Below are positions 16,717 through 46,372 of a stretch of DNA of 64,000 nucleotides, piece after piece (positions within the stretch are counted from its first letter, which is position 1; the number at the start of each line of letters is the position of its first letter). This DNA comes from Thermodesulfobacteriota bacterium (GTDB lineage: Bacteria; Desulfobacterota_D; UBA1144; Nemesobacterales; JAJCZQ01), in NCBI GenBank assembly GCA_965215275.1, contig OZ244044.1, forward strand, positions 160,001-224,000, written 5' to 3'. The translations under genes and the position numbers were made by a program. Below the pieces are notes generated by a model that had not been told where the DNA came from, ran no database searches, and saw only the letters and a list, made by a program, of their open reading frames with translations.

Positions 16717-18627
16717 ATGGCAACTTCAAAGATCATTGGAATAGACTTGGGCACCACTAACTCATGTGTAGCTGTGGTTGAGGGAGGTGAACCTAAGATC
16801 ATAATAAACGAGGAAGGTATCAGGACCACCCCGTCCGTAGTTGCGTTTGGCAAAGACGATGAGGTCATAGTCGGCGGGTCGGCAAAAAGGCAGGCCGTGG
16901 TTAATTCAAAGAACACGATATATTCAAACAAGAGACTTATGGGAATGAGGTTCGAGGAAGTGGAAAAAGAGGCCAAGACCCTGTCCTACGACGTTGTAAA
17001 ATCCCCCAATGGGGACGCGTGGCTTGAGGTTGAAGGTAAACAGTACTCACCTCCTCAGATATCATCACACATTCTGACGAAACTGAAAAAAGCTGCAGAG
17101 GATTATCTTGGTTCAGAGGCAAAGGAGGCGGTGGTAACGGTGCCGGCTTACTTCAACGACAGCCAGAGACAGGCAACTAAGGACGCCGGCAAGATAGCGG
17201 GATTAGAGGTTAAGAGGATCATCAATGAACCTACTGCGGCGGCTCTCTCTTATGGGTTCGATAAGAAGAGCGAAGGGATAATAGCAGTTTACGACTTAGG
17301 GGGAGGGACCTTTGATATCTCTATACTTGAAGTCGGGGATAACGTGATCGAGGTTAAATCCACTAATGGAGATACACATCTGGGAGGCGATGATTTCGAT
17401 AAGAAGATCATCGAATACATAATAGATGAGTTTAAAAAAGATTCAGGAGTTGATCTGAGTAAAGACAAAATGGCGATCCAGAGACTCAGGGAATCGGCAG
17501 AAAAAGCAAAAATAGAACTTTCAAGTACTTTGGAGACCGAAATAAACCTGCCTTTTATAACGGCAGATGCATCAGGTCCGAAACATTTAGTAATGAAGAT
17601 CACCTGCTCGAAGTTCGAGCAGCTGACGGAGGACCTGGTCAAGCAAACCCTTAAACCATGCAGGCAGGCTTTAAAGGACGCCGGGTTAAAGGCTTCGGAT
17701 ATCTCTGAAGTGATCCTGGTCGGAGGATCTACCAGGATTCCGCTTGTTCAGAGAACGGTGACCGAGTTCTTTGGTAAGGAACCCCATAAGGGTATTAACC
17801 CTGATGAGGTCGTGGCAATGGGTGCAGCGATCCAGGGTGCTGTTCTTGGAGGGGACGTAAGGGACGTGCTGCTTCTTGACGTAACGCCTTTATCTCTCGG
17901 TATTGAAACGCTGGGTGGGGTGATGACACCTATCATATCCAGAAATACGACTATCCCTACTAAAAAAAGCCAGGTGTTCACAACGGCAGAGGATAATCAG
18001 ACCGCAGTTGATATTCACGTCCTTCAGGGTGAACGTCAGATGGCTTCAGACAACAGAACGCTGGCTAAGTTCATTCTTGACGGCATTCCTCCGGCATCAC
18101 GGGGCGTGCCTCAGATCGAAGTGGCGTTCGATATCGATGCTGACGGGATACTGCACGTTTATGCCAAGGATACGGCAACGGGTAAGGAACAGAAAGTAAA
18201 GGTCGAAGCATCAAGTGGGCTTTCCAAGGAAGAAGTGAACAAGATGGTGGAAGAAGCTGAAGTGAAATCTGAAGAAGATAAGAAAAGACACGAAGCCGTT
18301 GAAAAGAGAAACAAGCTGGACGAACTTATTTACAGGACTGAAAAGAACTTCAAGGACATGCAGGACAAACTGTCCGACCAGGAAAAGAAAGAACTTGAAG
18401 ATGCACTTGAGGAAGGGAAAAAGACCCTTCAGTCCGATGAAGCAGGCAAGATAGATGAAGTAACCGAGAGAATTACACAGGCATCACATAAACTGGCTGA
18501 AATGGTGTATAAACAGCAATCAGAAGGTCAGGGTCAAGAGGAACAAAAGGATACGAGCGAACAGAAGGGAACGGACGAAACTAAAAATGACGATGTAATA
18601 GATGCTGAATTTACAGAGAATAAATAG
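16717..18627 (+). CDS. dnaK: Chaperone DnaK
   Basis: [32 protein letters not shown] tail. Confidence 0.98.
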
Positions 18628-18748
18628 TCTCGTTCCACGTATACCACTTGAAGTTATTTTCTGACATATGAATAAACCTGTATGGGAAGTTTTGGTTACG
18701 TTTGATCTTAATGATGAATACTGTATTTAGAAGGGTCAGGAAGGGCAG

Positions 18749-19501
18749 ATGGCTTTCGGTGATGGTAAGATCTCTGAAGAAATGAAACAGAAAGATATAA
18801 ATGATGAAGCTAATGGGTTGGAAGGGGCTGATATTAAAATCAGCGGTGAAAACTCAAAAAGAATGGAAAAGATCCTGAAGCACTGTGAGCAGGTCTCACC
18901 TGAAGGTTCAAAGAAGATAGGAGAACTGCTGCAGCGTTGGGGGCAGGTCTCACCTGAAGATTCAAAAAGGGTAGAAGAACTGTTACAGCATTGGGAACCG
19001 GTTTCAGAGGCTTTAGATGATCGTTTTGTAAGACTTAATGCAGATTTTGATAATTATAGAAGACGCGTATGGAAGGAAAAAGATGATATTTCCAAGTATG
19101 GTAATGAAGAATTAATAAAGGAACTGTTAACAGTTTTGGATAATCTGCAACTTGCCGTGGATTATTTTGATCCCAAAGGTAATGTAAATTCACTGTTTGA
19201 AGGCGTGAAGCTGGTACAGAACCAATTGATGACCACCCTTAAAAAGTTCGGATTGACCACCGTTGATATACAGGAAGGCAGCAAATTTGATCCAGAATTC
19301 CATCAGGCGGTTGAAAAGAAAAGTGGTAAAGATGAGCCGGAACTGATACTTGAGGAACGGGCCAAGGGCTATATATTAAATGGCAGACTCGTAAGACCTT
19401 CAATGGTAGTTGTATCGACCAGTGATGAGGCGGATAAAGTAACAAGTGAAGCTGAGGATGTTATAAAAAAGGGTCAAAAAGACAACTCGGAGGAGATGTG
19501 A
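18749..19501 (+). CDS. grpE: Nucleotide exchange factor GrpE with N-terminal tandem repeats
   Basis: RLNADFDNYRRR, FDPEFHQAV, KGYILNGRLVRPSMVVV; between dnaK and dnaJ. Confidence 0.9.
   Translation: MAFGDGKISEEMKQKDINDEANGLEGADIKISGENSKRMEKILKHCEQVSPEGSKKIGELLQRWGQVSPEDSKRVEELLQHWEPVSEALDDRFVRLNADFDNYRRRVWKEKDDISKYGNEELIKELLTVLDNLQLAVDYFDPKGNVNSLFEGVKLVQNQLMTTLKKFGLTTVDIQEGSKFDPEFHQAVEKKSGKDEPELILEERAKGYILNGRLVRPSMVVVSTSDEADKVTSEAEDVIKKGQKDNSEEM
18854..19012 (+). repeat. Three imperfect 54-bp (18-aa) tandem repeats inside grpE
   Basis: SKRMEKILKHCEQVSPEG / SKKIGELLQRWGQVSPED / SKRVEELLQHWEPVSEA; units start at 18854, 18908, 18962. Confidence 0.85.
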
Positions 19502-19598
19502 TCCGTAGTTGAAAGGTCTGTAATAAGTGAAGGAACGTTTGGATTTGCTGATACCTGAAACTGATTTATGGTTTTAATTAACCTTCTGGAGTTAAACA

Positions 19599-20675
19599 GT
19601 GACCAGAGATTATTATGAAGTTCTCGGTATTGACAGAAGTGCCAGTTCGGGCGAGGTAAGAAAGCAGTACAAAAGACTTGCTTTTGAGTTCCATCCTGAC
19701 AGGAATCCCGGTGATGCTTCTGCTTTGGAAAAGTTCAAAGAGATAAATGAAGCCTATCAAATATTGAGCGATGAGAACAAACGTGCTCAATATGACAGTT
19801 TCGGTCACATCGGTTCTGATTTTGGGTCTAATATCAATGACCTGTTTGGAAACCTGTTTGATGAAGTTTTCAATGGTGGTTTTGGTTCCGACGGTCGTCA
19901 GAAAGGCAGTAATTTACAGTACGAGCTTAAAATAGGGTTTGAGGAAGCTGCATTTGGAGTTCAGAAAGAGATTGAGATCTCCAAAAACGTCATATGTTCC
20001 CATTGCAGTGGTAGGGGAGCATCACCCAGAGGCGAAGACAGATGTAAGGCCTGTAGGGGTAGTGGTTCGGTTGATTACACAAATGGTTTATTTTCTGTCA
20101 GAAGGACCTGTGGTCAATGTAAGGGTAGGGGATATGTAATTACAGAGTATTGTAATGAGTGCAGCGGAAATGGGGTCCTAAAAACTCAACATAAGGTAAA
20201 AGTTAATGTTCCGGCAGGGATTTCCAGTGAATCAAGGTTAAGGATCAGAAATGAAGGAGGACATGGAATTAACGGGGGACCGAACGGAGATCTTTTCGTT
20301 GTTATATTGGTAGAGGAACATCCGATATTTATAAGGGAAGGTAACGATATATGCTGTGAAGTGCCGATAAATTTTATCCAGGCAATGTTAGGTGATAAGA
20401 TTACCATTCCGACCCTGCTGGGAAAGGATAACTTAAAAATTCCACCAGGTACTCTGCACGGTCAGCTTTTCAGATTAAAAGGAAAAGGAGTGGTTGATTT
20501 ACAGACGAACAGGATTGGTGATCTGATTGTAGTAATTAGCGTTGAAATTCCTAAAAAGGTAACATCGAAACAGAAAAAGCTATTAGAGGAGCTTGCCAAG
20601 GATATTGTCCCCGAGCAGTTTAAAAACGTTAATAGTTTTAAAGAGAACTTGGAGAGACATATTTCAAAAAATTAG
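19599..20675 (+). CDS. dnaJ: Chaperone DnaJ
   Basis: J-domain with HPD, four CxxCxGxG zinc motifs, C-terminal domain. Confidence 0.95.
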   Translation: MTRDYYEVLGIDRSASSGEVRKQYKRLAFEFHPDRNPGDASALEKFKEINEAYQILSDENKRAQYDSFGHIGSDFGSNINDLFGNLFDEVFNGGFGSDGRQKGSNLQYELKIGFEEAAFGVQKEIEISKNVICSHCSGRGASPRGEDRCKACRGSGSVDYTNGLFSVRRTCGQCKGRGYVITEYCNECSGNGVLKTQHKVKVNVPAGISSESRLRIRNEGGHGINGGPNGDLFVVILVEEHPIFIREGNDICCEVPINFIQAMLGDKITIPTLLGKDNLKIPPGTLHGQLFRLKGKGVVDLQTNRIGDLIVVISVEIPKKVTSKQKKLLEELAKDIVPEQFKNVNSFKENLERHISKN

Positions 20676-20773
20676 GGGATTACATACTTAATTGCCAAAA
20701 AGCTCAGACTACTTCCTGCACTGACTTTAAAGTTTTGGACAGGTCCTGTCAGTATGAGATATTATTTATCCAC

Positions 20774-20803
20774 TTGACATTCGTTCATAATACTTGGTAA
20801 AAT
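20774..20803 (+). promoter_or_regulatory. Sigma70-type promoter of S8-like surface protein gene 1
   Basis: TTGACA (20774-20779), 18 nt spacer, TG-extended TAAAAT (20798-20803); ATG 9 nt downstream at 20813. Confidence 0.7.
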
Positions 20804-20849
20804 ATAAATGTTATGAAAAATTCAAACATAAAAACACATAGTTCCATTA

Positions 20850-20930
20850 CCCCCCCCCCCATATAAACCTGACCTTTCAGTCTGGTATAAGTATTTTTTA
20901 AGAACAATGTTTAAGATAATCCCCCCCCCC
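20850..20930 (+). repeat. Two poly-C tracts (C11 at 20850-20860, C10 at 20921-20930) in the 5' coding leader
   Basis: Seen directly; each puts a stop codon in frame, and removing one C from each joins ATG 20813 to the downstream ORF. Confidence 0.85.
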
Positions 20931-20973
20931 ATCTAAGTCATTACTTACGTTAGTTTTATTTATTCTGTTTATA

Positions 20974-23900
20974 ATGGTAATAGCTGCAAAAGGGCAGAGC
21001 AGCCTGGAAGAAACATTATCTGAATGCAGAGGTATGAGTGCAGACACGGAAGATCCGTTATACGGATGTCAGTGGCATCTGAAAAATACAGGACAGTTTA
21101 GTATTTCCGGAAATAGAATAACTGCAGGAGAAGATATAAACATAGAGGGAGTGTGGAACGAATACGTATACGGTACCGGAATTAACGTAGCAGTTGTAAG
21201 TGACGGTATCGACCTTTCACATGAGGACCTTTCTGCAAACGTACGTTCCGAACTGAACTATAGTTTTTCTGAGAAAGATAATTCTGACAGTTCATCCTTT
21301 ACCGGAACACGAGCAGCAGGTGTTATTGCAGCGGCTGGATATAACGGACTGGGAGTAAGAGGAACAGCACCTGGTGCGAGTATATACAGTTACAGGTTAT
21401 CCGGTGATCTCAGGGAAGCGGACGCGGTGGTCCGTAATAAAGAAATAACAGCAGTATCGGTTAACGGCCTGGGATCTGAGGACGGAGCTTTTTTTCAGGA
21501 GGCTTTATCTTCCTGGGAAGAAGGAGTGGAACTTGGTATAAGTAAAGGGTTTTATGGTAAAGGAGTGTTTTACGTCCGGGGAGCAGGGGACGGGCATGAG
21601 AATAACGATCAGGCTAATTTTTCTGAATATTCTAATTACTACGGCGTAACAGCCGTGTGTTCAACTGACGGTTATGGAAAAAAGAGTATTTTTTCAGAAG
21701 AGGGAGTAAATCTCTGGGTATGTGCACCTGGTTCTGATATTGTAACCACAGATAACAACAACGATTACGTTGTAACTTCCGGAACATTTCTATCAGCTTC
21801 ACAGGTCGGAGGAGTGGCTGCACTGCTGAGAGAGATAAACGGGAATCTGAGCTGGAGGGATATAAAGCTTATACTTGCGGGTTCAGCACGTCAGAACGAT
21901 TTTTCTGATATTAGCTGGGAGACAGGAGCTGTTAAATACGGCTCTGACACGGAAAGATATAATTATAATCCTAAGTATGGTTTTGGCGTGGTAGACGCAG
22001 AAGCAGCTGCAGAACTTGCAGGAAGCTGGAAAGGCGTTGGAGAGATGAGGACCGTTACCGCCTTTTCAGATAATGAAATAACAATTCCTGATGGAGAAGG
22101 AGAAGCGGATGGAATACTTACCTCCACACTTATGATCCCGGACCTGGAGGAAATATTTACGGAATTCGTGGAGGTAGAACTTGTTTTCTCTCATGACCGC
22201 TTACAGGACCTTAATATACAGATAACCTCTCCTTCCGGGACAGTATCTGAACTTGTGCGGGAGGTTGTAAGGGGATCTTCGAATGAAGAAGAAAACTGCG
22301 TCAGTTACCTGAGAAGAACACATCGTTTCGGGTCGGCTAAGCACCTCGGAGAAGACCCTTCCGGAGAATGGATCCTTAATATATCTGATACTGCTTCCGG
22401 AGATGCAGAAAACACTGTTACCTTACACTCATGGAGCATTAAGGTATACGGGCATTTTTATCAGGGAACTGGCAATGAGATAAATCCTAAACATCACAGA
22501 CTGAATTTTGGCGGTCAGACAATTCAGGATCAGGAGTATCAAGTAGAAGTTCAGATAGCACCATTAGTGCTGCCTAGGGCAACTGGAGATACTGGAATAC
22601 AATATAATTTGACTGATGATCCAAACACAGATGGATTTGCCACTAATGTACCAATTGATGGATTGAGTTTTAACCGTGGAACCAGAACTCTAAGTGGCAC
22701 ACCCACTAATACTGGGTCTTTTGATCTCATATACAGCGCTGTTGGTAGAACAGACGGTACTGCTGCTCAACTTGAGTTCAACGTTACGGTGGTAAACGTC
22801 CCTACCTTCGGAGGTCAGACCATACCAGATCATACGTATGCAAGACTTCAGACAATAAGAAATCCGTTAACTTTTCCTAAAGCAACGGGAGGGAATGCTC
22901 CCTTGACTTACAGTATAACTCCTAAGGTACAGACTGGACTTGCTTTCAGCAGTTCCACTCGGAGGATAACCGGGTCACCTGGGACTGTAAGGAGCAGAAC
23001 TGAGCATACGTATACGGTAACGGACAATGAGGGAGATACGGCTGAGATAACGTTCGGTATAACCGTAGAAGGAAATGACAGGAGGCCGCGTTTCAGAGCA
23101 GGTGAGAATATCTCTGATAAGTTTTATTTTACAGGTGTTCCGATAACGCCGGTAACGCTGCCCAGGGCAACTAACGGGAACAGTCCGATAAAATACAGTT
23201 TAAATCCTTCTTTACCAACTGGATTGAGCTTTAACGCAAATACCCGGGAGATAAGCGGGACACCGACTGCTGCAAGCAGTAACACAGAGTATACATACAG
23301 AGCATCAGACCTTGATGGAGACAGGCGTGATCTGAAGTTCAGTATCACGGTAAGGGATGCAACTGACGTACCGACCTTCGGCAGTGAGACGATAGATGAT
23401 CAGGAGCATACAGCAGGGAGTCAGATAACACCAGTAACGCTGCCTGAGGCAACATCAGGAGATGCTCCGTTAATATACCGTTTAACCCCTGCCTTGCCTG
23501 ATGGATTGATCTATAACAATATCACCGGAGTTATAAGCGGAACACCGACTGCTGCAATGTCTGAGACTATGTATACATATACAGTAACGGATAATGATGG
23601 AGATACGGATGAGCTGACGTTTAATATTGAGGTAGCAGCAAGCTTCAGCAACGTAACGATAGAAGATAAGGTGTATATAGCAGGTACAGCAGTAACGGAA
23701 ATGCTGCCTGAGGCAACTGGACATAATGGAACGGTAACCTACAGTTTAACCCCATCATTACCAACTGGACTGGACTTTAACACAGCTACCCGGGAGATAA
23801 GTGGAACACCTTCTGCTGCATCGTCTCAGACTGCTTATACATATACCGTTACTACTGGTGCAGGAGGACCTGCACGAACTTTGACGTTCAGGATAACAGT

Positions 23901-37986: not shown

Positions 37987-38063
37987 GGACATTTCTCTTC
38001 AGCAATTTTAATCAATAGTGAAAAAAGTAAAAGGTTTATAATGAACGTAATATAGTTATATAA

Positions 38064-39376
38064 GGGAATTATAGTGAATAGTTGACAGGAAGAAAAATTG
38101 AAAACGGGTCAGAAAATGGGTAATATTATAGCATGGTTAGAACGATCACAAGAACTGTAAAGGCAGATAGTGTTTTTCATAAAAGGCTGGATGAATTCTT
38201 ACAACAGCTTACCGACCTGTATAACGGAGCTTTATATCACAGATTAAGATCTTATGACTGGTATGAAAAAACTATCTCTAAATACGAACAGTTTAACGAA
38301 CTAACTGAGGTCCGAGAGCAAGACAAGGAATTTGAAAAGTTTAATGTTGTAGCTCAAAGAAGCGTTCTGGAAAGACTGGATAATGCATATAGTCCTTATT
38401 TGAACTATTTAAAGAATAAAAAAGCAGGAAAGAAGGTGGGCAGACCAAAATACAAAGGTCCAAACAGACCTGTCAGAAGTTTTGAAACAAACAATTATAA
38501 AAACATTGAAAAGATCGGCAGAAGAACGTATTTAACGATAAAGGGACTTGGCAGATTATCTTTCAAAGGTTCTATGCCTGATGGAGTTGTTTTAAAACAA
38601 CCTAAAACAACAATAAGGATAGTTAAAACTGCTATAAGGATAAAGATCCAGTTTCTATGTGAGTTTACCAGCGAAAAGAAAAGACCTATGGACAGGTCCA
38701 TAGGGATCGATCTTGGAATTATAAACAGAATGGCTTTTTCAGATGGAACTAAAATACCAGGAGTTCGGTTGAACAGAAAGGAACTGAAAAGAAAGCAGAG
38801 AATTGTTTCAAGAGCGGTAAAAGGTTCTGACAGCAGAAAGAAGAAAGTTTTATCGTTAGCAAAGGAATGGGAACGAACTACCGATCGTGAAAATAACGCT
38901 ATACACAGAATGACTACCGAAATAGTAAAAAAGAACAATCATATAAAGTTGGAGGATTTAAAGATCCAAAATATGGTAAAAAATCCTTATTTAGCAAGAA
39001 GTGTAACGGAACAGCAATGGGGGAAGATTAAAACCCAACTTGACTACAAAGCCGAGATAGCTGGAGGCAAGTTAGTTTTAGTTAATTCCCATTATACAAC
39101 AATGACCTGTTCTGAATGCGGAAAGGTAAATCCAAAACTGCCTTTGTCTGAAAGAGTATTTAACTGTATATATTGCGGTTATTCAGAAGACAGGGATATA
39201 AATGCAGGTAAAAATATCAATACTCTTAATGAAGGAGACTTCATATCGGGTGGGAATAAGGTAGAAATACTCCCGATGAGTGCTAAGAGTATCAGATCAA
39301 AAGAGAACAGGGATAGAGGAACTCTGCACTCAGAACAGTACGAGTAGTTGTTTGTCAACTATTCACTATAATTCCC
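38064..39376 (+). mobile_element. Non-autonomous TIR element carrying tnpB (IS1595-like ends)
   Basis: Perfect 24-bp TIR GGGAATTATAGTGAATAGTTGACA at 38064-38087 and 39353-39376; flanking 8-mers TTATATAA/TTACATAA (7/8 identical). Confidence 0.85.
38133..39347 (+). CDS. tnpB: RNA-guided endonuclease TnpB family protein
   Basis: RuvC-I GIDLG, RuvC-II LEDL, CSECG..CIYCG zinc finger, RuvC-III DRDINA. Confidence 0.92.
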   Translation: MVRTITRTVKADSVFHKRLDEFLQQLTDLYNGALYHRLRSYDWYEKTISKYEQFNELTEVREQDKEFEKFNVVAQRSVLERLDNAYSPYLNYLKNKKAGKKVGRPKYKGPNRPVRSFETNNYKNIEKIGRRTYLTIKGLGRLSFKGSMPDGVVLKQPKTTIRIVKTAIRIKIQFLCEFTSEKKRPMDRSIGIDLGIINRMAFSDGTKIPGVRLNRKELKRKQRIVSRAVKGSDSRKKKVLSLAKEWERTTDRENNAIHRMTTEIVKKNNHIKLEDLKIQNMVKNPYLARSVTEQQWGKIKTQLDYKAEIAGGKLVLVNSHYTTMTCSECGKVNPKLPLSERVFNCIYCGYSEDRDINAGKNINTLNEGDFISGGNKVEILPMSAKSIRSKENRDRGTLHSEQYE

Positions 39377-39466
39377 TTACATAAGTAATGCCAATGGCAG
39401 AAAAACCATGTAATATATACCTGATTCATTATTGACCAGAATAATGATACATATGATATTAATCCT

Positions 39467-40897
39467 ATGAAAAAATTCGACCTGACTATTATCGGTTCCG
39501 GACCGGGTGGGTATATAGCAGGAATTCGTGCTGCACAGCTTGGTATGAACGTTGCGGTAATTGAACGTGACAAACCTGGTGGGGTCTGTCTGAACTGGGG
39601 CTGTATACCTTCTAAAGCGATACTTAAATGTGCAGAAGTTTACAACTATATTATCAGTTCGGAAAATTACGGTATTAAAGCGGACGGGGTTTCGTACGAC
39701 TACTCAAAAGTAGTAGATAAAAGCCAAAATGCATCATCGACCTTGAACAAAGGTGTTGAGTTCCTGCTTAAAAAGAACAACGTCACCCTGTTCAAAGGGG
39801 TCGGAAAGATCGTAAAGGAAGATCAGATAGCCGTTCTTAACAAGGAAAGCACTGAGATCCATTCGGATAAGGTCCTTATAGCTACCGGCTCGGTACCAAG
39901 AACGATCCCCGGTCTGGAAATAGACGGCAAAATAGTTATGACCAGTGATGAAGCGATCAGACACCGCGAAGTTCCCAGATCCGTTGTAATTATAGGCGGT
40001 GGTTATATAGGAGTGGAATTTGCCTACGTTTATAACTCTTTCGGCAGTAAAGTTACGATCGTTGAAATGGAAAAGAACATTATTCCAGGGGCTGATGAGG
40101 AAGTCGCACAGGAACTGCGGAAGATCTTTAAAAAACAAGGGATAGAGGTACTTACTGAAACTAAATACAGGTCTGTCAAAAAGCAGAAGACATCCGCTAC
40201 CGTAACGGTCGAGAACGTACGCTCAGGTGAGGAAAAAAATATAAAAGCTTCGTTGGTGTTGGTTGCAATTGGGCGGAGAGCAGTTGCAAATGCTTCCCCG
40301 TCTTCTTTCAGTTATTACGGAAAGAAGGAAAGTCTTGGGCTTGAAGAGATCGGCGTTGAGCTCAGTGATGACGGTTTTATCAAGGTCGATAAGGATTATA
40401 TGACGACTAAAAACAATATCTATGCCATTGGCGACGTCATAGGTCCCCCTCTGCTGGCACATAAAGCCTCCGAAGAAGGTGTTGCGGCGGTAGAGATCAT
40501 GAACGGGATCAAAAGCAAGGTTCACTATAACAAGATACCGGGCTGCGTTTATTGTCAGCCCGAAGTAAGTACCCTCGGTCTTACCGAAAAACAGGTAAAG
40601 GAACAGGGTTTTGACTACACGGTCGGGAAATTTCCGTTCAAGGCCGCAGGAAAAGCCGTTGCCGTAGGTGATACAGATGGATTTGTAAAGATCCTGTCTG
40701 ACAAAAGGACCGGCGAGATACTCGGAGCTCATATCATAGGACATGGAGCCACGGAACTGATAGCAGAACTTGGCCTGGCGTCTTCCCTTGAAGCCACGCC
40801 CCTTGAGATCTCATACACCTCTCATGCTCACCCTACTCTTTCTGAAGCGATCATGGAAGCTGCACTGGGAGCGTTAGGAAGAACGCGCAATTTCTGA
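39467..40897 (+). CDS. lpdA: Dihydrolipoamide dehydrogenase (second copy)
   Basis: GSGPGGY, GGVCLNWGCIPSK, HAHPTLSE. Confidence 0.93.
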   Translation: MKKFDLTIIGSGPGGYIAGIRAAQLGMNVAVIERDKPGGVCLNWGCIPSKAILKCAEVYNYIISSENYGIKADGVSYDYSKVVDKSQNASSTLNKGVEFLLKKNNVTLFKGVGKIVKEDQIAVLNKESTEIHSDKVLIATGSVPRTIPGLEIDGKIVMTSDEAIRHREVPRSVVIIGGGYIGVEFAYVYNSFGSKVTIVEMEKNIIPGADEEVAQELRKIFKKQGIEVLTETKYRSVKKQKTSATVTVENVRSGEEKNIKASLVLVAIGRRAVANASPSSFSYYGKKESLGLEEIGVELSDDGFIKVDKDYMTTKNNIYAIGDVIGPPLLAHKASEEGVAAVEIMNGIKSKVHYNKIPGCVYCQPEVSTLGLTEKQVKEQGFDYTVGKFPFKAAGKAVAVGDTDGFVKILSDKRTGEILGAHIIGHGATELIAELGLASSLEATPLEISYTSHAHPTLSEAIMEAALGALGRTRNF

Positions 40898-40926
40898 ACA
40901 TCCTGCCGTTCAAGTCGTTTACTGCC

Positions 40927-41601
40927 ATGAGCACGCTTGATATATACCACCTTGGAACGATCAGTTACAAGGATGCCATGGATATACAGTTCAAGCTGCT
41001 CGAAAAGAGGATCAATAAAGAGATAAACGACTCTCTTTTACTGCTTGAGCATCCATCAACGATCACAATTGGCAGAAGCGGTAAAAGATCCAATCTTCTT
41101 ATTTCCGACAGTTATTTAAAAAGCAGAAATATAGAATTTTTTGAAACGAACAGAGGTGGGGACATAACGTTCCATGGTCCGGGACAGATCGTATGCTACC
41201 CGATCATAGACCTGGATGATCGCACAAAGGACGTTCATAAGTATATAAGGGATTTGGAAGAAATAATTATAGAGACCCTTAAGGAATTTGACGTTGAAGG
41301 GCAGAGGATCGATGGACTGACCGGAGTATGGACGAAGGGGTGCAAGGTCGCGTCTATTGGAGTGGGTATAAGAAGATGGACCACCTATCATGGGTTTGCC
41401 ATTAATGTAAATACTGACCTTGATCTTTTTGATCTTATAATCCCATGTGGAATTGCTGACGTTGAAATGACCTCTATAAAACGCTGTAATGACCTTGAAG
41501 ACAAAATAGAGATGGATTCCGTCTGTAAGATCATTATTGAAAAGTTCATTAACGAGTTTAAGTATCTTGAAACAGAGGAAAAAACGTTAGTTACTGACTG
41601 A
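40927..41601 (+). CDS. lipB: Lipoyl(octanoyl) transferase
   Basis: LLEHP..TIGR, RGGDITFHGPGQ, KVASIG, HGFAIN, IIPCG. Confidence 0.95.
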   Translation: MSTLDIYHLGTISYKDAMDIQFKLLEKRINKEINDSLLLLEHPSTITIGRSGKRSNLLISDSYLKSRNIEFFETNRGGDITFHGPGQIVCYPIIDLDDRTKDVHKYIRDLEEIIIETLKEFDVEGQRIDGLTGVWTKGCKVASIGVGIRRWTTYHGFAINVNTDLDLFDLIIPCGIADVEMTSIKRCNDLEDKIEMDSVCKIIIEKFINEFKYLETEEKTLVTD

Positions 41602-41697
41602 AACGACCCTGTCTAAGGCAAATTTCTCTTCCCTGTGCTCTCTATACTTCCTGCACAAATAATCTAACCTATACATACTAATGAAAGCACATTGTTG

Positions 41698-42360
41698 TCA
41701 CGGTATTTGTGAACCTAACTGTCCTGTGTCAGCGTCGACCGCTATGCAAGGGTTGCTCGTAGGACTGAAGAAGGACCAAACGCCGGTGCAATCAGCCATA
41801 TTCAAAGCATTTAGCTGTGTTCCATCATCATCCAGTACCGGTATAGGAAGGTTTGCAGAGTCAGATGCTTCTTGTACAAGAACATAAGGACACTTAATAA
41901 TGTCCGCCATTTCCGGGGCATTGGGACGACCTGACCAAAAACCACGCCATTCTTTTTCATTCATATTGTTTTGTACAAGGTTGTATATTCCGGGATTGAT
42001 AAATTCACCAGGGCGGGATTCAACGCTGGTCTGGTAAAACAGCACCATGGAATTTCTTCCAGGATTTCCTTTACTATCTTGCTGATTGGAACCGATGTAT
42101 CCTACTTGTCTAAAATGGTGTCGCCTGCCATTATCGTCAATGAATGTGCTTGTAGCCAGTATGTTGTTTTCGTTAAGCGTTACCTCTTCCATAACTTCAA
42201 AAGCACATATTGGCGTATTATTTGCCCCTAATGTTGTATAATATCCAACCCACTCCACTGGGGCTGGAGAACTGTCCTTACTATCACATGCGAATATAGT
42301 TGCTCCAGCAAGTAGAATTCCTGCAAATACTGAACTAATCTTTTTGTAATGTCGTAAAAT
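41698..42360 (-). CDS. Hypothetical lipoprotein with probable ATT start
   Basis: Frame of the 41698-42258 ORF stays open upstream and encodes LRHYKKISSVFAGILLAGATIFA-C; AGGAGA lies 6 nt before ATT 42360; no in-frame ATG upstream. Confidence 0.6.
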   Translation of the reverse strand: MLRHYKKISSVFAGILLAGATIFACDSKDSSPAPVEWVGYYTTLGANNTPICAFEVMEEVTLNENNILATSTFIDDNGRRHHFRQVGYIGSNQQDSKGNPGRNSMVLFYQTSVESRPGEFINPGIYNLVQNNMNEKEWRGFWSGRPNAPEMADIIKCPYVLVQEASDSANLPIPVLDDDGTQLNALNMADCTGVWSFFSPTSNPCIAVDADTGQLGSQIP

Positions 42361-42417
42361 AATATTTCTCCTGATAGATTTTCTCCAAATTTATTACAGA
42401 GGATCATATTTGTCAAT

Positions 42418-43706
42418 GGGAACTATATACTTAAGTATCCAGTGGATACTAAAAGTTCTCTTTGACGAGTCATAGACCAGTTCCTGTCCCCAACCCCTCT
42501 GCAGTCTCCCCGTCCAATCACCCCTTTCCCTGAGGCTATAATTTGTTTTATTCCAGTTTCCAACTGGTTAAATGCAGCATTTAAGTCAGCATTAACTTCA
42601 TAACCGCAAGATGTACACTTAAATCTGGATTGCGATCTTCTGTTATCAGGAGATCTGTGTCCGCATTCAGAACAGGTTTGACTGGTATATGCAGCTGGAA
42701 CTTCTTCAGTAGCATTACACTTGTAATCCAGCATCCTTTTCATATCAAACCAGCCAGTAGCACGAATGTTCCTGTTCATCTTGCGAAAGTTCTTCCATTT
42801 CTTTCTGGCTGTCATCCCTTGTGTATTAAGTCTCTCAAGTACAGGAACATCATAAAGATCGGAGATCTTTCTTGTAACCTGATGTCTCCAGTCCTTCTGT
42901 CTGTTTGCCAGCTTCCTATGAAGTTTCTGTAACCTTTCCTTAGTAATTCTCCACCTGTTACTTCTCTCTTCCTGACGTGCAAGTTTCTTTTGGTATCTGC
43001 GTATCTTTGCTTCTGTAAGTTCATCATCAGATAACTTAAAAACCTGTCCGTCAGACAGCGTAACCTGTCTTGAATTCCTGTCCATTGCTACAACTCTTAC
43101 TTCTTTCTTTTCCTTTTTAGTTTCATCTATCTCATAGGTAAGGTACGCATACCACTTACCGCATTCCTTCCTTATCCTGCCAGAAAGGAACTTTCCATCA
43201 GGATATGGATTCTTACCTGCCAACCTGAACCATCCAACCTTTAAAATACGGAGCCACTTATTATCTGACAGTTTAGCTGACTGATAATTTACCGGGAATG
43301 AAGGAGTGGTTTTTAATTTACTCTTGAATTTAGGTTGTCCCGATTTTCCATCCCTGTATCTCTTACAGGCATTTGTAAGGTCCAGTAAATAATGCTGAAG
43401 TATGTAAGCAGATGCTTCTTTCAGAAAGTAGTTCTTTTCTTCTTTCTTCAATTCTCTCAAATCGTTACCTAAACTCTCATGACCATAACCATCATTAAAA
43501 TCATTATCCTTTAAATTTCCCACGAATTGATTCCAGATAAACCTGCAACAGCCAGCAGTAGAGGAAAGTTTATGAAACTTCTCCCTGTTGTTTGATCTCA
43601 ACCTCTGCCTTACCGTTCTTATTGTCTTACCTTCTTTCATATTTGTAATTTTACCTTATTCCCTTGCTTTTTTTAAGTAGTTTGGATAGTTAAGTATATA
43701 GTCCCC
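42418..43706 (-). mobile_element. Non-autonomous TIR element carrying tnpB (IS1595-like ends)
   Basis: 24-bp TIRs GGGAACTATATACTTAAGTATCCA (42418-42441) and, on the minus strand, GGGGACTATATACTTAACTATCCA (43683-43706), 22/24 identical; perfect 8-bp TSD TTGTCAAT at 42410-42417 and 43707-43714. Confidence 0.9.
42423..43640 (-). CDS. tnpB: RNA-guided endonuclease TnpB family protein
   Basis: GCCRFIWN, PKFKSK, RuvC-I AMDRN, RuvC-II LERL, TSQTCSECG..FKCTSCG, RuvC-III NADLNAA. Confidence 0.9.
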   Translation of the reverse strand: MKEGKTIRTVRQRLRSNNREKFHKLSSTAGCCRFIWNQFVGNLKDNDFNDGYGHESLGNDLRELKKEEKNYFLKEASAYILQHYLLDLTNACKRYRDGKSGQPKFKSKLKTTPSFPVNYQSAKLSDNKWLRILKVGWFRLAGKNPYPDGKFLSGRIRKECGKWYAYLTYEIDETKKEKKEVRVVAMDRNSRQVTLSDGQVFKLSDDELTEAKIRRYQKKLARQEERSNRWRITKERLQKLHRKLANRQKDWRHQVTRKISDLYDVPVLERLNTQGMTARKKWKNFRKMNRNIRATGWFDMKRMLDYKCNATEEVPAAYTSQTCSECGHRSPDNRRSQSRFKCTSCGYEVNADLNAAFNQLETGIKQIIASGKGVIGRGDCRGVGDRNWSMTRQRELLVSTGYLSI

Positions 43707-43918
43707 TTGTCAATTAAGGGATCTGCCGTATGTTCAATATTCAATCGCAGATGTTTTAATATGAATAACTTGATAAGTTAAGTAATTGTTTTCAGGAGAA
43801 AGAGTTTTTCCGAACACGAGCCTCAAGGACATTACACGGTAACGCACCCGTTCTCCTCAACGAACTTATAAAAGAAAACCAGGTTGTAATTCTATCTTGT
43901 GTTTTGCTGTCAATATTA

Positions 43919-46372
43919 TCAGGTCTTTATCCGAGACCTAATCTTCCTTCTTATCACAACAGATACAGGTATAAGCATCAGCGATGCCACTGCTGTGAGC
44001 ATATCAGGAACGGCTTCGCTCTGACCGGAGACCGCACATCCTCCTCCGCCTGTATCACTACCTGATGACGTTGGTCTTTGTGTCGGTGGTCTTGTTGTTG
44101 GTGGGTCTGTCGGTCCTGGCGGCGTAGTTGTTACCCTGATCGTAAATCTCAGCTCATCCGTATCTCCATCTTCGTCCGTTACCTTATATGTATAACTGCC
44201 AGAAGATACAGCAGTCGGTGTTCCGCTGATAACTCTGTCAGTTTCACTGAAAGCAAGTCCAGCAGGTAAACCAGTAGCAGGTAAAAGAGGGGACAGGCTG
44301 TAGGTCAGTTCTCCATTCCCTGCTGTTGCCTCAGGCAGTGTTTCTTTTATTGCAGTTCCCGGCACGTAATTCTTATCTGGTATGGTCCAGTTGTTAAACG
44401 TCGGCGTGTCCCCAGACATATGACCATAGACCTTTATGTTCCATGAGTGTAAGGTCCCCGTACCTGCAATTGAATTGTTAGTTATCTTCAAGGTCCACTC
44501 TCCAGCAGGGTCCGTTCCTAAGTGATTGGCTAAACCAAAACGATGTTCCCTGCCTGTGTACTTAAAGTCGTCTACAGTAAGAGATCCGTCAGATAAATGT
44601 GATAACGCTTCTGATGCATATTCCTCAGTGAGTTTTGACACGGTAGTATCGTCAGGAGAAGTTATTTCTATATCTAAAAAAGGAAAGAAAGGATGGGTAA
44701 AATTGATACCTATCTCTATAAATTCCGTAAATACCTCAGTGTCTGGTATATCTATATCAGGTACTGTCAGTGTGAAAACAACTGAAACGTCTTCTGCGTT
44801 TTCCCCCGTTGTGAAGTCTGGTATAACCGTATTGATATTACCCGAGGAAACCGTCACGGGTTTCATTTGCGGTGGAACGTTGGTCCAGCTTTCTGCAAGT
44901 TCCACTGCAGCTGCAGCGTCTACTGTGCCAAAAGTATCTACTGTGCCAAAACCGAACTTTGGATTGTAAAAATAATACTCTGAATCAGAACCGTATTGAA
45001 GTGCTACTCTCTTCCATTCTTGGGTATCACCGGAACGGGAGCCCTGGCTGGCTGAACCTGCCAAGATCAGTTTCAGGTCTCGCCAGCTAAGATCACTGTT
45101 TACCTCTCTCATCAGTGCTGCAATTCCTGAAACGACCGCTGCTGAATTTGACGTTCCAGGGAACTCAAAAGTATAACCGTCGTTATTGTCGGTAGTTACA
45201 ATACCGGAACCCGGTGCACATACCCATAGATTGTATCCCTCTTCTGAAAAGGAACTCTTAGTAACAGCGAGCGCATCCCTATCGATCTCTGATGAACATA
45301 CGGTAGTTACTGCGTAGTAGTTGGAATACTCATCAAAATTAGCCTGGTCTGATCCTTCATGTCCGTCCCCTGCCGCCCATACGTAAAACACCCCTTTACC
45401 ACCAAATCCTTCTCTTATACCCGTTCTCACCCCTTCTTCCCACTCTGATGAAGCCTCTGTAAGAACGGGAAGGTCCTTCGGTCCCCAGTTGTTGACCGAT
45501 ACAGCAGTTATATCCTTATTACGGACCATGGCGTCCTTTGCATTAGCATCACTGAAGTTACCAGCTAAATTATAACTGTAGATGTTTGCCTCAGGTGCTA
45601 CACCTCTTACTCCAAGGCTGTTATCACCCACTGCTGCTATAATGCCAGCTACACGTGTTCCACGACCACTGAAAGGACTGTACAGATCACCATTCCCAGA
45701 GTAATCATGAGAAAGTGTGGTATCTACATTGTCAGCAAGGTCCTCATGGTCTGTGTCCATACCATGATCTACCACCGCTACGTTAATCCCAGCACCAAAT
45801 ACGGCATCATCCCAGACATCTTCTATGTTTATGTCTATATCTTGTCTGGCGGAGGTTTGGAATACCTTATCGCCACCTAATATTACATCAACCGCTGGAG
45901 ATTCCAGATACCACTGACAGCCGTATAAGGGATCATTTGGAAAATTGGTAGTAATAATTGAACAGGTTTCAAAGAGTTGATTAGAATCAGCTAATTGAAC
46001 TTGAACTCGATAGGATGTAGCACCACTGCTTCCTACAACGATATAGTACGTTCCCCGTCTGAGGTGAGTTTGTATAGATATATTTCCTAGTAGCCTTTCA
46101 TCACTTGGGTCCACTACTTCAGTAGTACTTGCTATCAGATCATCATTACTGTCACATACCTGTAGGCTGTATTCCTGATCATTGGAGAAGGGGAAGGTTA
46201 CCAATATATCTGCAATAAAATCTCCATTTATGTTTATCTGAAAGTAATGCGGATCAGCACCGGCAGCTAAACTTCCATTGTGTGTTGGTCCTTGCACTCT
46301 CAACGTAGCTTCGGTCGTTGCACTGGAGTCACAGTTGTTAATGCTGGTCTTACCATATGCACTAATGGACAC
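43919..46372 (-). CDS. Surface-anchored kexin/furin-like S8 protein (catalytic His replaced) with N-terminal PPC-like domain, P-domain, one Ig-like repeat and Gly-Cys-TM-basic anchor; true N-terminus lies upstream across a poly-C frameshift
   Basis: DPLYGCQWYL, VAVVDHG, GRGTRVAG, GTSNSA, DLSWRDLKLILA, GTDPAGEWTLKI, GGGGCAVS..LIPVSVVIRRKIR. Confidence 0.85.
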   Translation of the reverse strand: MSISAYGKTSINNCDSSATTEATLRVQGPTHNGSLAAGADPHYFQININGDFIADILVTFPFSNDQEYSLQVCDSNDDLIASTTEVVDPSDERLLGNISIQTHLRRGTYYIVVGSSGATSYRVQVQLADSNQLFETCSIITTNFPNDPLYGCQWYLESPAVDVILGGDKVFQTSARQDIDINIEDVWDDAVFGAGINVAVVDHGMDTDHEDLADNVDTTLSHDYSGNGDLYSPFSGRGTRVAGIIAAVGDNSLGVRGVAPEANIYSYNLAGNFSDANAKDAMVRNKDITAVSVNNWGPKDLPVLTEASSEWEEGVRTGIREGFGGKGVFYVWAAGDGHEGSDQANFDEYSNYYAVTTVCSSEIDRDALAVTKSSFSEEGYNLWVCAPGSGIVTTDNNDGYTFEFPGTSNSAAVVSGIAALMREVNSDLSWRDLKLILAGSASQGSRSGDTQEWKRVALQYGSDSEYYFYNPKFGFGTVDTFGTVDAAAAVELAESWTNVPPQMKPVTVSSGNINTVIPDFTTGENAEDVSVVFTLTVPDIDIPDTEVFTEFIEIGINFTHPFFPFLDIEITSPDDTTVSKLTEEYASEALSHLSDGSLTVDDFKYTGREHRFGLANHLGTDPAGEWTLKITNNSIAGTGTLHSWNIKVYGHMSGDTPTFNNWTIPDKNYVPGTAIKETLPEATAGNGELTYSLSPLLPATGLPAGLAFSETDRVISGTPTAVSSGSYTYKVTDEDGDTDELRFTIRVTTTPPGPTDPPTTRPPTQRPTSSGSDTGGGGCAVSGQSEAVPDMLTAVASLMLIPVSVVIRRKIRSRIKT

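Follow-up and report, generated by a model that had tools for sequence, protein, structure and literature searches.

How does a gene for the RNA-guided nuclease TnpB move and persist when it is the only gene between the two ends of a transposon that carries no transposase? Two such loci lie in the 64,000-nucleotide stretch of DNA analysed here (the window; G000:C1:160001-224000), which belongs to G000, a single-contig Thermodesulfobacteriota genome of 1.99 Mb and 99.87% completeness. An earlier note on this DNA had described two clearly divergent tnpB genes, each in a small element with 24-bp terminal inverted repeats (TIRs) and 8-bp target-site duplications (TSDs), and had proposed them as a candidate new system. 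We denote these elements A and B. Our analysis points to tnpB-only elements of the IS1595 type, with likely mobilisation in trans; their TnpB is predicted to cut the empty allele by means of a guide starting at the TSD. We give this reading a probability of roughly 0.7.

Elements A and B and their relatives

Element A (38064-39376, 1313 bp) has 24-bp TIRs that are identical at 24 of 24 positions (left, 38064-38087 on the + strand; right, 39353-39376 on the - strand). Its single long open reading frame (ORF) is tnpB, on the + strand at 38133-39347 (404 aa), and it is bordered by TTATATAA (38056-38063, + strand) and TTACATAA (39377-39384), a duplication that agrees at 7 of 8 positions, with one mismatch. 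Element B (42418-43706, 1289 bp) has TIRs with 22/24 identity, one at the tnpB 3' end (42418-42441, + strand) and one at the tnpB 5' end (43683-43706, - strand). It too contains a single long ORF, tnpB, on the - strand at 43640-42423 (405 aa), and it is flanked by an exact duplication of TTGTCAAT, with the 3' copy at 42410-42417 and the 5' copy at 43707-43714 (- strand). The structure claimed in the earlier note therefore stands for both elements, with an exact TSD in B and a 7/8 match in A. The two genes, placed about 3 kb apart in that note, are separated by 3041 bp, and TnpB-A and TnpB-B are indeed divergent, with 27% identity. Both proteins score above the NF040570 TnpB cut-off.

Element A lies between aceE and an lpdA-like gene (host gene names are read from the translations, with no family scan behind them). 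A contig from the public sequencing run X6 joins 38055 directly to 39377, skipping 1321 bp (38056-39376), which is element A and one 8-mer. This contig is a precise empty allele of A, and the joint implies that the empty allele carries the right-hand version of the TSD. The changed TSD copy is the left one in A and also in L128/L129, an anecdotal agreement given the few orthologous pairs. The aceE-lpdA interval is without any element in all three relatives examined (G001-G003). The empty allele with one 8-mer left, which the earlier note had suggested looking for, is thus at hand for A; for B, no such joint was found in 8 sequencing runs, the second set being thinly covered.

In a profile search the genome yielded 19 full-length tnpB loci, which belong to five families, together with fragments; family A has 8 full-length members and family B has 3. 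TIR pairs of the GGGRAYTATA type enclose all 19 of these loci; copies with IS605- or IS607-type ends, which the earlier note had set against its own proposal, did not turn up among them. Exact flank duplications occur in 9/19 cassettes at 8 bp and in 0/19 at any of the other lengths between 4 and 12 bp, and 12/19 have an 8-bp TSD within one mismatch. As a control, left flanks were combined with right flanks taken from different elements, which gave exact matches in 0/1260 pairs. The TIR profile gave 231 matches in the genome versus 4 in a block-shuffled genome. Each copy has its own 8-mers directly at the TIRs, the tnpB 3' end lies 5-90 bp from the element end, and an ATG-started ORF of at least 400 aa is present in 16 of the 19 cassettes. 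Two cassettes from different families stand back to back, 16 bp apart, at G000:C1 1616480-1619604.

Transposases with closely matching ends are encoded elsewhere in the genome. PF12762 (IS1595 transposase) has 28 matches in G000, many of them inside the same TIR type with 8-bp TSDs and some with cargo, the closest to A and B being 77-81 kb away. No IS1595 transposase was found within a cassette, either among the 19 of G000 or among 215 related tnpB loci in the fetched DNA, and tnpB was found inside none of the paired transposase elements examined. The TIRs of cassettes and of transposase elements differ by 1-5 per 24 bases. The TIR at the tnpB-B 5' end is identical at 23/24 positions to an end of transposase element 1516018-1519071, whose transposase was confirmed as NF033547 (its zinc-ribbon match is weak). 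Against the IS1595 element at genome position 1100815, the TIR of A matches at 19/24 positions (5 mismatches for the left TIR), and the sister copies of A at 21-22/24 (2-3 mismatches). A and B thus have in common with the IS1595 family TIRs that start with GG, an 8-bp TSD, and ends shared with transposase elements of the same genome. These results bear out the IS1595-type ends and the lack of a transposase in cis that the earlier note had described, and they make it likely, as far as matching ends can tell, that IS1595 transposases encoded elsewhere in the genome move the cassettes in trans. Neither an IS607 TnpA nor an IS200-type TnpA was found in G000. A single Y1 match was rejected as a mobiliser, being RAYT-like, unlinked and below the NCBIfam cut-off.

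Some transposase elements carry cargo ORFs that are DNA methyltransferase- or restriction-like (675417-678070, 1002026-1005187, 1304051-1307389, 1516018-1519071 and 1812584-1815955); in the one of these that was scanned, the methyltransferase match of the cargo was weak. Host-like gene blocks at 17470-21955 and 1028600-1033127 are bounded by TIR and TSD and have no transposase. Among open-access full texts, we found no paper establishing the mechanism of IS1595 transposition, called cut-and-paste in the earlier note, and none giving the ISNwi1 end consensus that this note had put forward.

How far does this arrangement extend? TnpB-A has matches in 8/40 relatives and in 0/4 of the same family, and in g10, a genus of the same order, TnpB is present in 30 of 36 genomes and the IS1595 transposase in 31. 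We analysed 215 loci: 26 from the 40 relatives, 80 from a wider search, and 30 + 80 further regions from the g10 search (one locus is without a profile match, duplicates were dropped, and weaker g10-search matches were left out). In a tree of 208 proteins of at least 300 aa, the TIR-flanked TnpBs fall in two clades. Clade I comprises families A, C, D and E, one g10 group and 5/80 wider-search loci, titled Pseudomonadales, Arenicellales, Paracoccaceae, Caldilineaceae and Terriglobia; clade II comprises B and a second g10 group. Each clade has 100% support in the Shimodaira-Hasegawa-like approximate likelihood ratio test (SH-aLRT), with non-TIR TnpBs between them, and a single origin of both was not rejected by an approximately unbiased (AU) test (p = 0.33; 36 proteins, quick tree, LG+G4, with non-TIR TnpBs that came mostly from clade I queries).

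Most phylogenetic neighbours of A and B have ends of this type. A TIR pair is present at 73/81 clade I loci, with a TSD within one mismatch at 50 (a one-base shift being allowed), and at 44/53 clade II loci, with such a TSD at 25. Other TnpBs have such a pair in 0/74 cases, a count in which other TIR types would be missed because the end profile was trained on G000. A search with the B alignment yielded 80 metagenome loci, of which 43 fall in clade II, 19 of those with a TIR pair; no IS1595 transposase was found inside any cassette, the metagenome ones included. Judged from these sequences, the same design is present in two deep TnpB clades and in several phyla.

Several single loci deserve mention. 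In the clade I cassette L269:1928-4432 (G064), an IS630 transposase gene lies between the left TIR tip and tnpB; it is most likely a nested insertion, and a neighbourhood screen would label this locus an IS630-associated TnpB. A separate multicopy TnpB group of g10 without these TIRs (L126, L162, L165, L166, L170, L178, L187 and L201) has ends near GAGCGG, which we take to resemble IS607-type ends. Next to element B, a 186-aa ORF (41698-42258, - strand) has no Pfam match. Also near B, 43919-46372 (- strand) encodes an S8 peptidase with a P-domain and an Ig-like domain, the 3' end of which occurs repeatedly in the sequencing runs.

A base bias beside the target-site duplication

Of 73 clade Ia sites, 45 remained once orthologous duplicates and sites whose TSD has two or more mismatches had been removed. 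The base directly 5' of the left TSD is G at 44 of these 45 sites, against 12/45 in the mirror flank (p 4e-13), and at 25/45 the TSD is preceded by TG. In element A this candidate base is position 38055 (+ strand). At the same position, the transposase elements have G in 5/25 (p 6e-12 against clade Ia); these 25 consist of 17 with a usable TSD from 40 fetched regions, and 8 from G000. Clade II of g10 has a purine at -1 in 22/22 sites, compared with 7/22 in the mirror flank and 12/25 in the transposase elements, and its TSD starts with A in 22/22. The metagenome cassettes, some of which may repeat g10 sites, have a purine at -1 in 12/12, and 3 of their TSDs do not start with A. All three copies of B have TA before the TSD, at 43715-43716 (- strand) in B itself.

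This bias affects one side only, follows the orientation of tnpB and differs between families, which fits a transposon-associated motif (TAM). From the insertion sites, the candidate TAM of the A family and of most of clade I is G, mostly as TG or GG. That of clade II would be a purine, which in the B lineage takes the form TA or TG; the first base of the TSD may possibly belong to it as well. Families C, D and E (463-485 aa; G000:C1 735945, 1094941, 1618044, 1616480, 82022, 772121, 1041602 and 1695227) carry an extra ~65 aa as an N-terminal insertion, and the base before their TSD is A instead of G. It is conceivable that this insertion might change TAM recognition. As judged by eye, L153 (G044) and L199 (G052), a clade I and a clade II cassette, seem to share one site with an offset of a single base; the base before the TSD is in each case the one that the cassette prefers.

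At filled left junctions, pairing with the presumed guide stops at the TSD (8 nt) in 72/90 cases and never goes beyond 11 nt. For comparison, ISDra2 TnpB needs about 12 bp of pairing according to the text of PMC10097598. Elsewhere in G000 a guide match was found for 1 of 19 right flanks, with 2 mismatches from the TSD on, and was treated as chance.

It could be argued that IS1595 moves the cassettes and that the base 5' of the TSD is picked at insertion, either by TnpB-omegaRNA steering the transpososome to sites with a TAM or by cassette ends that alter the target preference of the transposase, so that retention by cleavage would be secondary. A bias that is nearly complete (44/45), and that is seen in a strain-polymorphic insertion (A) and in 7/8 closely related A copies, is what such a choice would give. 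We nevertheless consider this unlikely: transposase elements with like ends are unbiased (5/25), the preferred base tracks the TnpB family and not the TIR type, and the nuclease site has stayed intact, with purifying selection acting on it.

The right repeat in the predicted guide RNA

The predicted omegaRNA scaffold of A spans 39245-39376 (+ strand; the 5' limit is approximate). Its predicted structure has a stem (39245-39250/39272-39277), a loop (39252-39257) that would pair with the TIR tip (39371-39376), and a terminal hairpin (39338-39369) that takes in the right TIR. In the predicted scaffold of B (42418-42545, - strand), for which support is weaker than for A, a GGGAA loop (42530-42526) is complementary to the TIR tip and a hairpin (42430-42454) includes the TIR. 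Both clades conserve such complementarity between a GGGAA loop and the TIR tip, at the position of the ISDra2 pseudoknot.

On 30 clade I ends, 95.9% of the cells of the proposed structure are paired, with double changes at 14/27 pairs, a count that is inflated by related sequences. None of 500 shuffles reaches the score of this structure, and slid partners give 35-48%. RNAalifold gave almost no consensus structure for a 72-sequence clade I alignment but did so for the 30-sequence alignment, and the terminal hairpin and pseudoknot were placed by hand into the structure from the latter. One position of the last hairpin, in the inner right TIR, is paired in 54/54 distinct tails, by four types of pair (6 elements that lack the anchor were excluded from the tail count). 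The right-end hairpin of clade I folds at -8.75 kcal/mol with its own TIR versus -5.12 kcal/mol with a swapped one (p 9e-20; clade II, p 5e-6), whereas at left ends the exchange has no effect (p 0.59 and 0.57). GGG is kept in 109/120 right tips versus 84/120 left tips. The predicted RNA had 0 matches in Rfam. These folds suggest that the right TIR forms part of a covarying omegaRNA, a prediction that is stronger for clade I than for B. Outside the full cassettes, G000 contains 14 more omegaRNA-like remnants (G000:C1 1790311, 1953603, 1113616, 1886817, 1484806, 292559, 794533, 655981, 494671, 522329 and others), 7 of them with a right TIR; they are candidates for decayed copies or stand-alone guides.

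The nuclease itself is well preserved. A and B both have the TnpB domains, the RuvC D-E-D triad (D193/E274/D355 in TnpB-A) and an intact zinc finger (C4 in TnpB-A), and the triad is intact in 80/81 clade I and 53/53 clade II proteins (133/134 in total). The tnpB genes of the cassettes are under purifying selection, with a ratio of nonsynonymous to synonymous substitution rates (dN/dS) of 0.10-0.31 in 13/13 pairs. TnpB-A and TnpB-B also score against the IS200- and IS607-TnpB models, below the cut-offs. The solved natural structure closest to these proteins is an ISDra2-type TnpB; the matched entries are presumably ISDra2 TnpB itself.

We propose that the tnpB transcript would run on through the right TIR, which would form the last omegaRNA hairpin and, by its tip, the pseudoknot. 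If the scaffold ends at the TIR tip, the guide would be the TSD plus flank: the next ~16 nt would be 39377-39392 (+ strand) in A, by analogy with ISDra2, and 42402-42417 (- strand) in B. The empty allele, consisting of TAM, 8-mer and flank, would then be cut. The filled left junction would be spared because its TAM is generally followed by no more than 8 matching bases, the filled right junction because, although it matches in full, the TIR tip stands where the TAM would be. Repair from the filled copy would restore or spread the cassette. Since transposase elements lack the bias, the cassettes that landed beside a TAM are likely the ones retained. Retention by empty-site cutting is carried over here from IS200/IS605 elements and so would apply by analogy; the flank bias, the right-TIR fold and the intact triad are consistent with the suggestion in the earlier note that TnpB could cut empty alleles.

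The same facts might be read more simply, with tnpB as an ordinary IS1595 passenger, like the methyltransferase-type cargo, and a nuclease that has no role in the life cycle of the cassette. Other cargo ORFs do occur on IS1595 elements of G000, and TIR pairs also enclose host-like DNA without a transposase. However, the one-sided flank bias is restricted to tnpB cassettes, the right TIR covaries with its upstream arm and the left end does not, and the triad is intact in 133/134 proteins, all of which make this explanation improbable. The idea that IS1341/IS605- or IS607-type elements inserted in existing IS1595 miniature elements or host repeats and were moved by their own TnpA, as most TnpBs are according to the text of PMC10691335, is largely refuted: although the proteins do score against the IS200- and IS607-TnpB models (below cut-offs), the empty allele of A lacks both TIRs and one 8-mer, different 8-mers abut the TIRs of each copy, this nearly complete single-contig genome (99.87%) has no IS607 or IS200-type TnpA, and the tnpB 3' end is within 5-90 bp of the element end.

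Several observations weigh against tnpB-only IS1595 elements retained by cleavage, the reading that we prefer. A recognisable TSD is missing in 7/19 cassettes of G000 and in 9/17 transposase elements, for which we infer later rearrangement. The best TIR match of A to a transposase element is 19/24. Families C, D and E of clade I have A at -1, not G (3 usable sites), a TAM of 1-2 bases would be much shorter than the TTGAT of ISDra2 (text of PMC10097598), and A is strain-polymorphic yet already has its G, so that the bias could arise at insertion. As to the RNA, the pseudoknot helix is nearly invariant and therefore offers little covariation, its fifth pair is broken in 9/30 sequences, the B 3' end has no folding advantage over shuffles (z = -0.55), and the fold of one B copy is poor.

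One clade II TnpB without TIRs, L019 (G019:C4, - strand), has tnpB at 1753-551 and directly after it a mini-array resembling a CRISPR array, with two 39-nt repeats and a partial third (starts 539, 473 and 407) and spacers of 27 nt. The repeat has an end that resembles the TIR tip, TATTCCC + AAG, and upstream the locus retains the 5' part of the clade II omegaRNA. No match to the repeat was found in metagenome contigs, and no relative of the protein in 5 other genomes of that family. By its repeat and flanks, L019 is a candidate for a TnpB-to-CRISPR step from an IS1595 cassette. A broader proposal, which we offer tentatively and with some doubt, is that IS1595-TnpB forms an undescribed multi-phylum class of OMEGA systems, possibly from two captures, in which the transposon end would be the guide-RNA adaptor, the TSD the seed, and the 1-2-base TAM not imposed by the transposase, with L019 as a CRISPR-like step. 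If this were true, TnpB would decide which insertions survive, and these would be almost TAM-free compact nucleases.

Comparison with known systems

TnpBs in DDE-type elements have been described before, and the claim of a new system in general terms is therefore not supported. The text of Altae-Tran 2023 (PMC10691335) reports six DDE-associated TnpB branches (DDE-1 to DDE-6) whose elements have inverted terminal repeats, as well as solo TnpBs enclosed by the same ends. Our cassettes resemble these branches in having TnpB inside TIRs, a 3' end near the element end, and solo copies that are probably mobilised in trans. In DDE-5 a TA motif lies 8 bp upstream of the predicted end (supporting information, SI, of PMC10691335), the same geometry as in A and B. 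DDE-5, however, counts among the branches that have a rearranged catalytic site and occur on plasmids (PMC10691335, text), unlike the canonical triad here, and the top-ranked plasmid matches of our proteins are only 28-33% identical. The rule of that study called for a DDE gene within 1000 bp, and the intact cassettes here have none there; cassettes without a cis transposase escape screens by neighbourhood, so that part of the solo tnpB genes labelled 'IS1341-like' may be of this kind. Within the searchable text of PMC10691335, Fig. 4 and the Zenodo files apart, IS1595 does not occur in the main text and has a single mention in the SI PDF (in a list of hidden Markov models, HMMs), never as a partner. 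The text of a 2026 review names ISL2, IS630 and IS1031 as prokaryotic DDE-TnpB partners (PMC13565253), a term search of PMC13639567 gave no mention of IS1595 or DDE, and among open-access full texts we found no paper describing TnpB within IS1595 ends.

With ISDra2 and other IS200/IS605/IS1341 TnpBs, the cassettes share the protein family and an omegaRNA over the tnpB 3' end and right end (predicted here); the pseudoknot that ISDra2 forms with the last scaffold bases has a candidate counterpart here, in a conserved complementarity that hardly covaries. IS200/IS605 elements have no TIRs, no TSD and an HUH TnpA, with a serine TnpA in IS607 (PMC13565253, text), whereas TIRs and TSD are present here, the transposase elements are without the motif, and the TSD sits between TAM and element. 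Empty-site cutting for retention has been shown for IS200/IS605, in which the TAM is the transposase target motif (10.1101/2023.03.14.532601, text).

IS1595 features given in the text of PMC8101967 are terminal GG (stated for Merlin, the eukaryotic relatives), an 8-bp TSD, and a transposase with zinc-ribbon and DDE_Tnp_IS1595 domains. The terminal GG and 8-bp TSD are shared with IS1595 elements that carry passengers; unlike those, the cassettes have no transposase gene, tnpB is their sole cargo, and their right TIR is a predicted guide-RNA scaffold. Fanzor in eukaryotic TIR transposons is likewise a TnpB-type nuclease in DDE-type elements with TSDs. In Fanzor the 5' TSD is part of the TAM, the 3' TSD is part of the scaffold, and the catalytic glutamate is shifted (PMC13565253, text), whereas here the motif lies mostly outside the TSD and the glutamate is canonical.

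The text of the 2026 review describes pairings of DDE elements with TnpB as rare in prokaryotes and raises the question of how the guide system deals with TSDs that vary (PMC13565253). The more than 100 insertion sites examined here give a testable answer, with the TAM outside the TSD, the TSD as seed and the TIR as RNA adaptor. Nuclease specificity would thereby be separated from transposase specificity, which coincide in IS605, and should the TAM prove as short as the insertion sites indicate, these ~400-aa nucleases would be able to address a far broader range of targets than ISDra2. The general arrangement is already known; what is added here is the IS1595 partner family, the proposed TSD-as-seed geometry with controls, and a candidate TAM uncoupled from transposase preference.

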